This document shows, piece by piece, positions 14,708 to 20,063 of a stretch of DNA of 32,000 bases. A program made the translations under genes and the position numbers. This DNA comes from an uncultured Mycoplasmatota bacterium (lineage in GTDB: Bacteria; Bacillota_I; Bacilli_A; RF39; UBA660). The notes under the pieces were generated by a model, which was given only the letters and a program-made list of their open reading frames with translations, did no database searches and had not been told where the DNA came from. Location of the stretch: NCBI GenBank assembly GCA_900547225.1, contig URFW01000002.1, forward strand, positions 140,392 through 172,391, in the 5' to 3' direction. Each line of letters begins with the position of its first letter. The first letter of the stretch is position 1.

Positions 14708-14716
14708 AAAAGTCTA

Positions 14717-14748
14717 AAAAAGTCAAGTTTTTAAACTTGACTTTTTTA
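14717..14748 (+). terminator. rho-independent terminator ending the ftsEX-M23 operon
   Basis: AAGTCAAGTTT (14720-14730) pairs with AAACTTGACTT (14733-14743), followed by TTTT. Confidence 0.8.
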
Positions 14749-14769
14749 ATGTTTACGTCAAGAAAAATA

Positions 14770-14892: not shown

Positions 14893-15423
14893 GTGAATCA
14901 AAAGAAAAAGAAAGGATTAATAGCTTTAGTAATACTACTTGTAGTAGCTATTGGTGTTGGTTTTGCAGCATCACAAGACGCAGTAAATATTACTGGTACT
15001 GCAAGCGCTGTTGCAACAGATTTTGATATTCAGTTTAAAACAGATGCTACTATAACAACCGAAAAGAGCGCTGGTGCTACAATAGTTGCTTCAGGTGCTT
15101 ATGGTACTGATGGAAATGCTGATGCTACAATGACTGTTTCTGGATTAAAGAACGCTAATGATTATGCAGAAGCAACTTATACTATCATAAACAAAAGTAC
15201 TGATGTAAACGCTGACATTACAGCAAAAGTATCATCTGCTATTGAAGATGCAGATCATTATAATGTTGAAGTAACAGGTGGTGCAAATGGTGTTGCTCCA
15301 GGTGCAACAACTACTGTAACAGTTAAAGTTACACTAAAAAAAGCTTTTGCTGATGATACAGCTGCACAGGCACCAAAATCATTCAAAATTACAGCAACTG
15401 GTGTAGCAGCTGAAGAAAAATAA
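14893..15423 (+). CDS. small secreted Ala/Thr/Gly/Val-rich protein (candidate fibre or surface-layer subunit) with a cluster-specific leader motif
   Basis: The track ORF starts at GTG 14884. GTG 14893 lies 8 nt after AGGAGG. It has a Lys-rich n-region, a hydrophobic h-region, then GFAASQDAVNITGTASAVA. The mature part has low complexity and looks beta-rich. It sits next to a SipW-type peptidase gene. Confidence 0.75.
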   Translation: MNQKKKKGLIALVILLVVAIGVGFAASQDAVNITGTASAVATDFDIQFKTDATITTEKSAGATIVASGAYGTDGNADATMTVSGLKNANDYAEATYTIINKSTDVNADITAKVSSAIEDADHYNVEVTGGANGVAPGATTTVTVKVTLKKAFADDTAAQAPKSFKITATGVAAEEK

Positions 15424-15458
15424 TATTTGGCAGAAATTAGTTAAGGAGGAGGTATATT

Positions 15459-16584
15459 ATGGCTAAAAGAAGAGATTCGGCTTATATATACTTTGCATTT
15501 GTAATAGTATTTCTTCTCCTTAATCTTCTTGTGCTAAATATTAGTGCAAAATTACAATTGTTACCCATATTTATAATTATATTTTTGTTAAGTTTTATCT
15601 TCTTTAAATTTAGAAAAGACAAAACTTATGCAAGAATTCAGGTAACTATTACAATGTTACTTATAGGAATTGTGCAAATAGTTTTATATCTTTTAACCGG
15701 CTTTTTAGAGGGCTTTTCTAAGAATGCTATTAGTATGAGTTTTAACCGTTTTTTAACCGTTATTTTACCTATTATATTAATATTAGTAGTTATTGAATTG
15801 TTAAGATATATGATATCAGTAAAATTCGAAAAAAACAATTTAATAAGAATACTTAGTATTACTATGTTTGTACTATTTGATGTGACTTTATTTGGCTCAA
15901 ACGTGAATTTTAATAGTTTGGATTCTGTATTAGAATTTTTAGGAATAACGTTTTTTCCTAGTCTGGTAAGTAATATTGTGTTTGATGATATGGTAGTTAA
16001 ATATGGATATAAACCAATACTTGTTTATAGATTATTAACAACGTTATGTTATTACATGTTGCCTATCGTTCCTAATATGTATATTTTATTTAGGGCAATT
16101 GCAAGAATTGTGATTCCGCTTATTTTTTACTTCATATTATCTTATATGTATGATAGGGTAACGTTTCAAGAAGCATTAAAGGTAAAGCCTAAAATAAGTA
16201 TTTCATCAATAATTATACTTATATTAGTAATTATTATGGCAGGTTTAATATCTTGCGAATTTAGATATGGTATTTTAACAATTGGAAGTGGTTCTATGAC
16301 TGGAACTTTAAACAAAGGAGATATTGCTTTTTTTCGAAAAATTTAATGGTCAGGAGTTAGAAATAGGTGACATTATTATATTTAAACGAGGCAAAAGAAA
16401 TATAGTCCATAGAATCACACAAGTTGGCTTATTCAATGATGAATACGTTTATATAACAAAAGGAGATAAAAATAAAGTAGAAGATAATGGGTATGTTTAT
16501 CAAAAGGATATTCAAGGGATAGTTCACTATAGGATAAAATATATCGGATACCCATCTATATGGATAAGAAATTTATTTAATTAA
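15459..16584 (+). pseudogene. polytopic membrane domain fused to an ER/archaeal-type (SipW-like) signal peptidase I, split by a frameshift at a T7 tract
   Basis: ORF 15459-16346 has ~9 TM helices and ends ...GSGSMTGTLNKGDIAFF (catalytic Ser box). ORF 16324-16584 continues FFEKFNGQELEIGDIIIFKRGKRNIVHRIT...ITKGDKNKVEDNG (His box and KGDxN box). The frames meet at T7 (16328-16334), and deleting one T fuses them. AAGGAGGAGG RBS at the 5' end. Confidence 0.8.
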
Positions 16585-16615
16585 TGTAATTAAAATTTAA
16601 AAAGGAGGTAAAGTT

Positions 16616-17710
16616 ATGGACAGAAAACAAATAAGCAAAGTTATGCAAGAAACAAAAAAAAGAACAAGAACTATTGCTATTTTGATATTTGTTGTAATAG
16701 CTGTTTTACTTGCAGCTATAAGCATAATTTTTATCTCTATAAATAGTGAGAAGAATTACTACATTCATTATGATGAAAAAAGTGATTTAGATTATAAGGT
16801 ATATTTAAAAGAAAATGATTATTTTGGAAGATATCTAGGTAAAAACAATCAATATATTGCAAGCCTAATTGATTATGTGGAGGCAGATTTTAATTACAAA
16901 TTATCAATCGATGAGAAAATTGATTATTCATATTATTATTACGTAGAAGCAACTGTTCAGGTTTTAGATACTAATGATAAACCATTATATAAAAAGGTTG
17001 ATAAAGTAGTTGAAAAACAATATTTCAAGGATCCTGTTAATCATGCTTTTGAAATAGATCAAACTGTTAATTTGGATTATAATTACTATAACAATATAGT
17101 AAATACGTTTATTAAGAGATATAACTTATCAAATGTTAAAAGTAATGTCACTTTAAGTATGTATGTTGGAATTGAAGGGGAATGTAAAGAATTTGATTCT
17201 TCTTTAGCAGACAACGCAGTTATTAGTATGAACGTCCCATTAACAACAAACACTGTTAATATTGACATGAATTATAAATTAAATAATTCTACAAACAAGT
17301 TATTAAAATGTAGAGAAGAATCAGTATTAAATAATAAATTACTTATTTTAGGCATAGTTTTATTATTCATTGATTTAGGTGTTTTGGTAGGAACTATTAG
17401 ATATTCAAAAAGAACTAGAAGCACTTTAACTATATATAATAAAAAACTAAAAAATATTTTTAATAATTATGGTCAATATATATCTAAGATTAAAACGGAG
17501 TTAAAATATGAAAAATTCCAAATTGTATTAGTTGAAGAGTTTGAGGATTTATTTGAGGTAAGAAATTCAAGTAATTCACCTATATTATTTTGCCAGGATG
17601 AAACAAAAACAAGAAGTGCCTTTGTTGTTCCAACAAATTCTGGACTAGTGTACATCTATTATTATTCAATTAGTAATGTAATTGAGCAAGGATGCAAACA
17701 TGAAAGTTAA
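16616..17710 (+). CDS. bitopic membrane protein (TM, ~210-aa extracytoplasmic domain, TM, ~100-aa cytoplasmic tail); possibly DUF5305-like
   Basis: 364 aa. TM1 is IAILIFVVIAVLLAAISIIFISI and TM2 is LLILGIVLLFIDLGVLVGTI. AAAGGAGG RBS. From memory and unverified, proteins of this layout (DUF5305) accompany SipW-type peptidases. Confidence 0.6.
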   Translation: MDRKQISKVMQETKKRTRTIAILIFVVIAVLLAAISIIFISINSEKNYYIHYDEKSDLDYKVYLKENDYFGRYLGKNNQYIASLIDYVEADFNYKLSIDEKIDYSYYYYVEATVQVLDTNDKPLYKKVDKVVEKQYFKDPVNHAFEIDQTVNLDYNYYNNIVNTFIKRYNLSNVKSNVTLSMYVGIEGECKEFDSSLADNAVISMNVPLTTNTVNIDMNYKLNNSTNKLLKCREESVLNNKLLILGIVLLFIDLGVLVGTIRYSKRTRSTLTIYNKKLKNIFNNYGQYISKIKTELKYEKFQIVLVEEFEDLFEVRNSSNSPILFCQDETKTRSAFVVPTNSGLVYIYYYSISNVIEQGCKHES

Positions 17711-20063
17711 AGATAAATTTTTAAAGGCACGAAAAAAATATAGTGATAGTAAGAAGTGGGCAATTTTTCTTATATTAACTATATTTTTATTGAATATAGG
17801 TTATGCAGCTTCAAAGGCCTCGCTTGAAATAAAGGGTAGTGCGAGTGCTGTAAAAATACCAGAATTATTTATCGAAGAAGTAAAAATAATTGACATAAAC
17901 GGATGTTCACAAAATGAACTTCCCATAACAAATGGAACTACTTTGGATACTAATATAAATTTTCCTTCTAATGAATATTCATATATAACATATCAGGTAA
18001 CTATTGCAAATGGTACGGATTCTATTCAAAAGTATACAGGAGAAACTTATAATAGCGATACATCAACTAAAAATGTTATTAATTATGAACTTACGGATGG
18101 TCTTTCTTCCGGTGAGTATTTGTTCCCTGGGGATAGTACAACATATACGTTAACTTATAAGTATAGAAACGGTGCAAGTACAGGTAATTATGATTTGAAA
18201 ATGAACTTTAATTTTGAAGATTCCGGTAAGTTTTCCGCACTTTCATATACAAATAGTGTTGATTTAACTAATAAAACTAAAGAAGCCGTAAAAATTAAGG
18301 TAATGAATAATGGAGATTCTGCAATCAATTATAATCTCAACATAGATAATACTAAATTTGAACTAACTGATATTAATGGAAATTCTTTAAGTTCTCTTTC
18401 TATAAAAGCTCATACTGAAGAAGAAATAACTGTTTATTTATCCAAAAAGTCAGATGTTACATATTACAAAACAGAATATGAAACAAACTTTAGTTTAAGT
18501 TATAATGATATTACATTAGATTTTGGAAAAATAAAAATAAAAACAAATACAACAAGTGGCTATGTTGATACAACACCTCCTCAAATAGGGACAGTATCAG
18601 TTGATATCGTATATGAAGTTGGATCAATTGATGTTACTTGGTCTAATTTAGATAATAAAAATGAGTCTCCAGTAACTAATTATGTTGTTTTACTTTATAA
18701 TGATTCGGGAACTCTTGTTACAACCGGAAACACTGGTAATTCAGATACCACCTATAGATTTAAAAATCAAGCACAAGGAAATTATTATGCTGTAGTTTAT
18801 GGTATAGACGAAGCTGAAAATTCAGGAGAAACTTATGTTTCATCTTCTTCAACATCAACAACCAATGCAAGAAAATCTGTTACAAAAGAAATGAGATGGA
18901 AAAGAACAATAACATATAATGTTACAAATATTAGTGTTGCAGGACCTAATGAGGCTAATTTGGGTGAGTCATTTACAGCTACTTTAAAACCGGATAATAA
19001 CTATAAATATAATTCTGTTCCTTCAGTTACGTCAGATGGTAAAACTTTTAAAGATTATTCAACGAATGCTGATAAATATACTATAACAATAAATCAAGTG
19101 ACAGGTGATCTAGTTATTACTGCAACAGCAGCAAGAACTGCTTGCCTTGCTAAAGGAACAAAAATATTACTTGCAAATGGCAAATATAAGAACATAGAAA
19201 ATATTAGATATGATGATTTACTAATGGTATATAATCATGAAAATGGTACATTTACTCCTGAATATCCTATTTGGATTGAAAAAGGTAATTTGTCTAGTAA
19301 TTATCAAGTAATAACATTTAGTGATGGTACTTCTTTAACAACGATCGATAAACATTCTTTATTTAGTATTGATGACAATAGATATGTTGATGTAACAGAT
19401 GAAAATACATTTCACGTTGGAACTAACATACTAAAAACAGTAAAATCTAAGAGAGGTTACAAGCTCAAAAGTGTTTCTGTAACTAATATAGAAAAGGTAA
19501 ATAAATCGATTGATTATTATAACGTTGTATCAACAAAATACTATGATATAATTGCAAACGATGTATTAACATCAGATGGAAGAACAGGACTAGTTAATTT
19601 TTATGAGTTTAAGGAAAATGCTGTTTGGTCTTCAAGAAGACAAGAAGTTATAAAGAATAATACATTCTTAAACTATGAAGATTATAAATTTATTCCGTAT
19701 TACTTGTTCCATGGCTTAAGAGCACAAGATGGAGCGGTTATAATTAAGTATAATTATATGACTAAAGAAGAATTTGAATCTGTGTTTACCGATTTATTAT
19801 TAAATAAAGAAATGGTATTAGATCCAATAACTAAAAACAAAAAAAGATATTGGATGGTAACAACATCAGATGATAAAGTAACAAGTAAAAATAAAGAAAA
19901 ATATTTACTGAAAGAAAATAGTTATTATACGTTAGAAAAACCTAAGAAAACGAAAAATTTCAAAGGTTGGTATAATACTGGCGATGGGAAGATTTATAAA
20001 CCGGGTAGTAAGGTAAAGATATATCATGGTACACATTTTGTTGCATCATATAATAAAAATTAG
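17700..20063 (+). CDS. large secreted multidomain protein: cluster leader motif, Ig/CARDB-like beta domains, FN3-like domain, Hint (bacterial intein-like) domain, unknown C-terminal region ending in a Listeria-Bacteroides-type repeat
   Basis: The track ORF starts at TTG 17682. ATG 17700 follows AAGGA. Leader: GYAASKASLEIKGSASAVK. FN3-like: PPQIGTVSVDIVYEVGSIDVTWSNL...YYAVVYGIDEAENSG. Hint block A: CLAKGTKILLANG (Cys codon 19143-19145). Hint C-terminal block: YYNVVSTKYYDIIANDVLTS. C-terminal FKGWYNTGDGKIYKPGSKVKIYHGTHFVASY. Confidence 0.85.
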   Translation: MKVKDKFLKARKKYSDSKKWAIFLILTIFLLNIGYAASKASLEIKGSASAVKIPELFIEEVKIIDINGCSQNELPITNGTTLDTNINFPSNEYSYITYQVTIANGTDSIQKYTGETYNSDTSTKNVINYELTDGLSSGEYLFPGDSTTYTLTYKYRNGASTGNYDLKMNFNFEDSGKFSALSYTNSVDLTNKTKEAVKIKVMNNGDSAINYNLNIDNTKFELTDINGNSLSSLSIKAHTEEEITVYLSKKSDVTYYKTEYETNFSLSYNDITLDFGKIKIKTNTTSGYVDTTPPQIGTVSVDIVYEVGSIDVTWSNLDNKNESPVTNYVVLLYNDSGTLVTTGNTGNSDTTYRFKNQAQGNYYAVVYGIDEAENSGETYVSSSSTSTTNARKSVTKEMRWKRTITYNVTNISVAGPNEANLGESFTATLKPDNNYKYNSVPSVTSDGKTFKDYSTNADKYTITINQVTGDLVITATAARTACLAKGTKILLANGKYKNIENIRYDDLLMVYNHENGTFTPEYPIWIEKGNLSSNYQVITFSDGTSLTTIDKHSLFSIDDNRYVDVTDENTFHVGTNILKTVKSKRGYKLKSVSVTNIEKVNKSIDYYNVVSTKYYDIIANDVLTSDGRTGLVNFYEFKENAVWSSRRQEVIKNNTFLNYEDYKFIPYYLFHGLRAQDGAVIIKYNYMTKEEFESVFTDLLLNKEMVLDPITKNKKRYWMVTTSDDKVTSKNKEKYLLKENSYYTLEKPKKTKNFKGWYNTGDGKIYKPGSKVKIYHGTHFVASYNKN

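Follow-up and report, generated by a model that had tools for sequence, protein, structure and literature searches.

The locus studied here raises the question of why two exported proteins with unrelated bodies should carry a similar stretch of residues immediately behind their hydrophobic segments. It lies in a window of 32,000 nucleotides, the whole stretch of DNA that was analysed, from an uncultured Mycoplasmatota bacterium (contig URFW01000002.1, positions 140,392 to 172,391), and forms a cassette of four genes in the order small protein (S), polytopic archaeal-type signal peptidase I (SPase I), DUF5305 protein and large protein with a Hint domain (L). A first-pass annotation had proposed that the shared segment might be a recognition tag for the peptidase of the cassette or, as in the TasA/TapA fibre, an N-terminal donor strand. 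We consider it probable that two functions are joined in this leader, namely a site for the dedicated signal peptidase and, directly behind it, a donor strand, so that S would be a fibre subunit and L a TapA-like starter or tip.

The translations of positions 14959-15015 (GFAASQDAVNITGTASAVA) and 17799-17855 (GYAASKASLEIKGSASAVK) were as annotated, and the two 19-residue segments, both of which directly follow the hydrophobic h-region, share 10 of 19 identities and four conservative pairs (F/Y, Q/K, V/L and T/S). Their spacing from the Lys-rich n-region is also alike, the last Lys being found 16 residues ahead of the motif Gly in S and 15 in L if GTG 14893 and ATG 17700 are taken as the starts. 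In a fixed register, 10 identities were reached in 1 of 1,000,000 composition-preserving shuffles, and in any register of the shuffled whole proteins in 1 of 300. BLASTP of the whole proteins returned the N-terminal match only (16 of 35 residues identical, E = 4e-5 for the pair), and a profile comparison by hhalign, with the leaders taken off both families, gave a probability of 2.8%, which confirmed that the bodies are unrelated. Nor did hhalign detect homology when the body of S was set against the 260 residues that follow the leader in L, and the idea that L begins with an S-like domain was dropped. The leader DNA of the two genes is just 53% identical, with many synonymous differences; this rules out a recent gene conversion between the two 5′ ends, and argues that the likeness has been kept by selection at the protein level. 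When the window was translated in six frames, a stricter core motif (core2) was found in the S and L open reading frames (ORFs) only, and a looser pattern gave four further chance matches in unrelated places. The search pattern that had been suggested, [FY]-A-A-S-x4-I-x-G-[ST]-A-S-A-V, matches neither protein, since the gap between S and I is of five residues and should read x5.

The cassette is not peculiar to the window. The databases hold 55 relatives of S, in which no Pfam domain was found, and 29 of L, nearly all of them metagenomic and none annotated. Species-representative genomes queried with the L family gave 80 loci (numbered L001, L033 and so on), all from metagenome-assembled genomes and one of them a 1.34 Mb chromosome. 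The label is in most cases Bacilli, Erysipelotrichaceae, Tenericutes or the like, and in some Muribaculaceae, Bacteroides, Clostridiales or another; the organisms are uncultured Bacilli of gut and rumen. The full S-peptidase-DUF5305-L set was present in at least 52 of these 80 loci; the DUF5305 gene occurs at least twice in seven loci, and the small gene twice in some cassettes. In some genomes, two cassettes or two tandem small-subunit genes were observed, reminiscent of the major plus minor subunits of the Tafi and AbpX loci, and in other cassettes different large cargo proteins (described below); the loci concerned are L009 18658-21094, L012 1680-3048, L015, L017, L039, L059 and L078.

Every S and L partner has an h-region, then G-[FY]-A, and then x-[YF]-x-Q-x-L-x-I-x-G-x-[AV]. 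With 32 cassettes placed in a common register, G and F/Y were found in 100% and A in 97-100%, followed by a small residue, Y/F (P2′, ~90%), x, Q, x, L (P6′), x, I/V (P8′), x, G (P10′), x and A/V. Small residues at -3 and -1 and an aromatic one at -2 make up the classic SPase I pattern, and the invariant G-aromatic-A fits this rule. We infer from this conservation that G-[FY]-A is most likely where a specialised Sec signal peptide is cleaved; in S, the only hydropathy peak spans residues 8-26. The two cleavage sites named in the first-pass annotation, AAS| and ASA|V, proved to be confined to the clade of the window and did not hold across the cassettes. The former would place Tyr/Phe at -1 in most of them, the invariant G-[FY]-A| lying two residues upstream, and the latter does not exist in most of them, ASA being gone already at 58-60% identity within the S family. 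Processing of the type IV pilin (class III) kind at KKKKG|L was also considered. The hallmark of a type IV prepilin is [KR]-G followed by a hydrophobic helix with Glu5, together with a prepilin peptidase. This candidate was rejected, because the Gly is not conserved in the relatives, L has no such Gly and Glu5 is missing, S reading KKKKG-LIALV; no prepilin peptidase is encoded in the cassette.

The 16 residues behind G-[FY]-A most likely form an amphipathic N-terminal donor β-strand. If the cut is placed there, the family consensus (aromatic-2, Q/D-4, L-6, I-8, G-10, A/V-12) has the register of the strand observed by electron cryomicroscopy in the AbpX fibre, in which the first 16 mature residues are the donor strand, with W2, L6, L8, A10 and I12 buried and the acidic E4. 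With the same cut, S of the window would begin A-S-Q-D-A-V-N-I-T-G-T-A (S2, D4, V6, I8, G10, A12), and L would begin A-S-K-A-S-L-E-I-K-G-S-A (S2, A4, L6, I8, G10, A12). The 17 residues that follow G-[FY]-A were compared between S and L across 49 non-redundant cassettes. Strands from one cassette have 5.37 of 17 identities in common and non-cognate ones 3.26, a difference reached in 0 of 20,000 permutations, which do not fully correct for kinship. Most of the excess was at P1′, P11′ and P13′-P17′, and not at the invariant residues that flank the cut, and it was strongest at P11′ and P13′-P17′. States specific to a clade appear in both partners, such as ASAV in the clade of the window, V-I-S/N-x-V-T-L (L038), IQSS/INSS (L033), x-N-I (L002) and INI-x-GST (L010), and the pattern recurs in several separate clades.

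The AlphaFold models, all of single chains, were also consistent with a donated strand. S was modelled as an all-β protein (mean predicted local distance difference test, pLDDT, 78.9), the mature part of which is acidic (19 D+E and 11 K+R); its residues 28-39 form a paired strand (pLDDT ~91), followed by a low-confidence linker (residues 40-62) that contains a conserved FDIQF. Residues 40-49 of L have a pLDDT <50 and are not docked on the domains of L itself, whose first domain strand starts at residue 56; a strand whose proper place is the groove of an S-type subunit would be expected to stay loose in such a model. Residues 41-56 of S (window 15013-15060), which were modelled with low confidence, carry T-D-F-D-I-Q-F here and W-K/D-V-x-F in most cassettes, and, like the self-complementing strand 48-61 of TasA, they might form another strand in competition for this groove. 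The donor strand, one of the two roles first suggested for the segment, is thus favoured by the homology of the cassette to those of Tafi and AbpX, by the match in register to AbpX, by the co-variation and by the behaviour of the models.

The other suggested role, a tag that is read by the peptidase or the DUF5305 protein in order to pick the substrates and position the cut, and that has no structural role afterwards, accounts for part of these data. As had been proposed, the motif marks proteins encoded beside a dedicated signal peptidase: when 2,012 ORFs from ~1.4 Mb of the related loci were searched with a leader hidden Markov model (HMM), it gave matches only beside the SPase/DUF5305 pair or at cut contig ends, among them other cargo proteins of 516-743 amino acids, which in other cassettes stand as different large proteins behind the same leader. 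The two substrates of a cassette co-vary, and PMC10269814 describes a distinctive cleavage region, with an aromatic residue at P2′, in SipW substrates. However, the residues that flank the scissile bond are invariant and do not co-vary, and the co-variation peaks 11-17 residues downstream, beyond the reach of an SPase active site. In addition, the segment alternates as a strand with a buried face does, forms part of the fold in the model of S and has the register of a solved donor strand. A pure tag therefore fits poorly and is unlikely.

The C-terminal piece of the peptidase (ORF 16324-16584) matches TIGR02228 with 53.1 bits (cut-off 51.85) and SipW at 2.7e-10, and in the catalytic domain, which also has GDKN, the motifs SGSM and HR could be read directly, so that by sequence the peptidase is of the S26B/archaeal type, with Ser-His. 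In an intact orthologue of 374 amino acids, about nine transmembrane helices precede the catalytic domain (seven hydropathy peaks at a strict threshold), and no C-terminal helix was seen by hydropathy. In the window, a one-base insertion near 16334 (16324-16346; GCTTTTTTTCGAAAAA in the window, GCTTTTGTCGAAAAA in L001 and L004 and GCTTTTTTTGAAAAA in L005) puts the Ser and His motifs into different ORFs. An intact gene, for a protein of 374 amino acids, is present in L001, L004 and L005, whose L proteins are 99%, 97% and 96% identical to that of the window, and it was found to be split at other positions in L007 and L078. The frameshift may be a sequencing error, a pseudogene or a phase switch. 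The adjoining gene, in the window as in the related loci, encodes a protein that matches PF17231 (7.4e-15, 55.4 bits, cut-off 29) and has two transmembrane segments (residues 22-40 and 243-261), an outside β domain and an inside domain; by analogy it is a putative TafG-like accessory subunit of the peptidase, a role proposed for DUF5305 proteins in PMC11821415 and in the AbpX preprint (10.64898/2026.01.04.697558).

A frameshifted peptidase would suit an uncleaved signal anchor, with both proteins kept in the membrane by their N-terminal helices and the segment serving as a stalk in contact with the peptidase/DUF5305 complex, and AlphaFold indeed runs the helix of L through G-Y-A to residue 40. 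This explanation is less probable still than a pure tag, because an aromatic at -2 between invariant small residues at -3 and -1 is the pattern of an SPase I substrate, the cassette has conserved its catalytic S26B domain, and in the homologous Tafi system the peptidase of the cluster does process the pilin. It is very improbable that the two leaders are Sec signal peptides of the ordinary kind, alike in composition only and processed at AAS| or ASA|V by a housekeeping SPase I. In the clade of the window, the -3/-1 rule does hold at both sites, and A, S, G and T abound in the segment. However, 10 of 19 identities were reached in only 1 of the 1,000,000 shuffles, which preserved this composition, the two sites break down outside that clade as described above, and at least 52 cassettes have the motif conserved.

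If a peptidase site and a donor strand are indeed joined in the leader, the cassette might work as follows. After export, the h-regions would keep both precursors in the membrane, and the polytopic archaeal-type SPase I, together with the DUF5305 protein, would cut after G-[FY]-A (GFA|ASQD... and GYA|ASKA...). The freed N-terminus of S would then insert into the β-sandwich of the next S, so that a fibre would be built by donor-strand complementation, and L, which has the same strand and no S-like body, would plug into a subunit of S in the manner of TapA and TasA. In that place L might act as nucleator, tip or adaptor, presenting its Ig-like domains.

Several results weigh against this scheme. 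By Pfam, Foldseek or PDB profile, neither the sequence nor the fold of S could be matched to TasA, AbpA, TafE or any solved structure. Foldseek of the S model against the PDB gave no match at E<=1e-3 and no TasA in the top 50, the best matches, all weak, being to the donor-strand pilins EcpA, DaaE and BPSL1626, and the PDB sequence profile search with S was empty. Pfam and NCBIfam gave nothing above cut-off for S or for the N-terminus of L, and no Peptidase_M73, TasA or DUF1102 for S, the relatives of which have weak CARDB/DUF11-type Pfam matches only. Both window leaders and two divergent homologues failed to match TIGR04088 (cut-off 19 bits) at E<=10, while TasA, as control, scored 38 bits; TIGR04089 and TIGR04090, the other models of SipW substrates, did not match the window proteins either, and the TasA control worked. 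Neither strand of the window is aromatic at position 2, and that of L lacks the acidic residue at 4. The permutation test corrects only partly for relatedness among cassettes, and the co-variation would equally arise if the strand is read not by S but by another single binding partner, such as the DUF5305 protein with its outside domain. Finally, if the frameshift is real, processing in this organism would need another enzyme.

The claim that the motif is private to S and L was true within the window and did not hold generally. A leader profile run against 1.84 billion representatives matched 2,628 protein clusters at E<=0.001, and in every case the match was at the extreme N-terminus. GYA-AFSD-x-L-x-I-S-G-T-A is the reading of many of these leaders, and the proteins behind them include BspA-type leucine-rich repeat (LRR) adhesins and DUF285/PARCEL proteins, so that, judged by sequence, the motif of the window is a local dialect of a wider leader class. 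A word-indexed protein search with the 44-residue leader profile gave 3 matches only. Out of 92 proteins of the wider class, 7 touch TIGR04088 (best E 0.0038, 17.3 bits) and 3 the TasA model NF046066, all of them below cut-off. Two LRR adhesins were looked at in their surroundings, one of 1203 amino acids with the leader GFA-VLQSNLNISGTA (L085 2467-6078) and one of 963 amino acids with the leader GYA-TLQSNLSISGTT (L086 10001-12892). They sit among housekeeping genes such as mutL, rlmN, pknB and ddl, and no peptidase or DUF5305 gene was found within the 11-20 kb fetched, which indicates that the signal is not restricted to cassette genes. A bolder and rather doubtful reading joins these observations. 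The leader G-[FY]-A | x-[FY]-x-x-x-L-x-I-x-G might be a general N-terminal sorting-and-assembly signal of Bacillota, in a role like that of LPXTG for sortases, and be cut by a polytopic SPase-DUF5305 machine. Its carriers (cassette subunits, Hint proteins and BspA-type LRR/DUF285 adhesins) would then be interchangeable tips on one fibre, and the Hint/BIL domain would cleave itself in order to release the N-terminal part or to attach it covalently.

L itself consists of the leader, the donor-like strand, tandem Ig/Fn3-like domains, the Hint/BIL domain and a C-terminal domain, and its AlphaFold model (pLDDT 86.6) gave Ig/Fn3 tandems and BIL2 as Foldseek matches. The best match of the Hint domain was BIL2 of Tetrahymena (6y75, TM-score 0.79, root-mean-square deviation 3.3, E 6e-8), and Pfam Hom_end_hint was matched at 2.5e-4, below cut-off. 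Cys482 and His552 of the TxxH motif are invariant in the family. The domain ends in ANDVLTSD, with no terminal His-Asn, which suggests N-terminal cleavage or transfer only. Relatives of L were also found on other leaders. In L036 (9662-11992), a homologue that is similar from about residue 135 on stands behind a type IV prepilin N-terminus, KKKKG|FTMVELL, and has a sortase and LPXTG pilins as neighbours, but neither the peptidase nor a DUF5305 gene nearby; the same cargo appears to be mounted there on a different filament system. In L079 (816-2546) and L082 (9200-10933), an ordinary-looking signal peptide precedes the C-terminal half of the L family, which contains the Hint domain, and a short peptidase gene of SipW size lies ~2 kb downstream.

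In the window, the cassette sits behind a hairpin that closes a set of ftsE-ftsX-pcsB-like genes (Table 1) and that likely marks an operon boundary; it was the sole addition from the promoter and terminator scans, and no Rfam families or tRNAs were found in the window. The starts used for S and L are those of database proteins that are 97-99% identical. Downstream of the L gene the window has uvrB (20111 onward), whereas L001, despite its closely related L protein, has genes for ParA-like and transglutaminase proteins and a second, inverted ftsE-ftsX-pcsB set (L001 13896-16637). As the DNA of the two differs past the L gene, the cassette lies at a rearrangement boundary.

Table 1. Positions of the cassette genes and their parts in the 32,000-nucleotide window.
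Feature	Position	Strand	Remarks
Hairpin with T-runs	14714..14749	unassigned (.)	terminator-like site between the PcsB-like M23 gene and the cassette
S, 176 amino acids, acidic β-sandwich, putative major fibre subunit	14893..15423	+	ORF; start GTG 14893 after AAAGGAGG site
S signal peptide	14893..14967	+	n-region MNQKKKK, h-region, then G23-F24-A25 as predicted -3/-2/-1
S predicted donor strand ASQDAVNITGTASAVA	14968..15015	+	first 16 residues of predicted mature S
Polytopic signal peptidase I	15459..16584	+	split into ORFs 15459-16346 and 16324-16584 by 1-nt insertion near 16334
DUF5305 protein, TafG-like, putative peptidase accessory subunit	16616..17710	+	Pfam PF17231
L, 787 amino acids from ATG 17700	17700..20063	+	mechanical ORF begins at TTG 17682
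L signal peptide, predicted end G34-Y35-A36	17700..17807	+	conservation across cassettes
L donor-like strand ASKASLEIKGSASAVK	17808..17855	+	L6, I8, G10, A12 and A14 in register of S
Hint/BIL domain of L, beginning at invariant Cys482	19143..19583	+	invariant columns; Foldseek BIL2 match

If the combination of peptidase site and donor strand is correct, a donor-strand fibre like those of TasA and AbpX would be present in uncultured small-genome Bacilli of gut and rumen, the surface structures of which are essentially unknown. The shared strand would be a sequence handle for the prediction of fibre-borne proteins, the HMM already finding 2,628 clusters, adhesins included, and the co-varying pairs of strands would be natural specificity swaps for the matching of donor-strand partners without a chaperone.

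This cassette, its Hint-bearing partner and its hosts were not found described in the literature searched; several known systems resemble it to different degrees. The pilins of the Gram-negative chaperone-usher pathway have N-terminal extensions with alternating hydrophobic residues and a conserved Gly, like the strand of S, and the weak Foldseek matches to EcpA and DaaE point the same way, but the cassette has neither chaperone nor usher, the envelope is of the Gram-positive type and the genes are unrelated. The Tafi clusters of haloarchaea and the taf-like Sec clusters of Thermococcales and Archaeoglobales encode a signal peptidase, TafD, together with a DUF5305 protein, TafG, the pair of enzyme and accessory that the cassette has too. 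Tafi has major, adaptor and tip subunits, which are modelled, and in Natrinema solved, as fibres held by donation of the first strand (PMC11821415, PMC12337348), and it requires the peptidase for pilin processing, deletion of TafD blocking both TafA processing and fibre formation (PMC11821415). Unlike the cassette, it is archaeal, TafD has four transmembrane helices and a C-terminal Ig-like domain, the subunits are DUF1102/TafE-like, and those of haloarchaea are exported by the Tat pathway.

In the TasA-TapA-SipW system of Bacillus subtilis (PMC9674648, PMC10151520), as in the cassette, an archaeal-type signal peptidase is encoded with two substrates. The donor strand of the major subunit TasA comprises residues 28-38, the first 11 after the SipW cut, and the N-terminus of TapA resembles it (PMC9674648); this accessory protein, otherwise unrelated, copies the strand and is thought to start the TasA fibre (PMC9674648, PMC10151520). 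The defining feature of that pair, an accessory N-terminus that mimics the strand of the major subunit while the rest is unrelated, was found in S and L as well. The differences are that SipW has two transmembrane helices and no DUF5305 partner, S matches none of the TasA, camelysin or TIGR04088 models, and L, unlike TapA, has 787 amino acids with Ig-like domains and a Hint domain.

The AbpX loci of archaea and Bacillota have a ten-helix SPase I, a DUF5305 accessory protein and minor or tip subunits predicted to join by donor strands (bioRxiv 10.64898/2026.01.04.697558). AbpX of Pyrodictium abyssi, which has archaeal, Bacillota and Chloroflexota homologues, shares with the cassette the gene for a many-helix SPase I that adjoins the DUF5305 gene, the small acidic β-sandwich subunit, the extra minor or tip proteins with predicted N-terminal donor strands, and, if the cut is placed after G-[FY]-A, a predicted amphipathic strand in the first 16 mature residues whose consensus would have the same register (2, 4, 6, 8, 10 and 12). 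S differs in that no link in sequence or fold to AbpX, which was compared by its published description, could be found, and the strands of the window have Ser at position 2. A Hint/BIL domain as on L goes unmentioned in the AbpX work, and the hosts here are uncultured small-genome Bacilli of gut and rumen. The principle is already established for TasA/TapA, Tafi and AbpX, and the cassette is a further version of it in new hosts.

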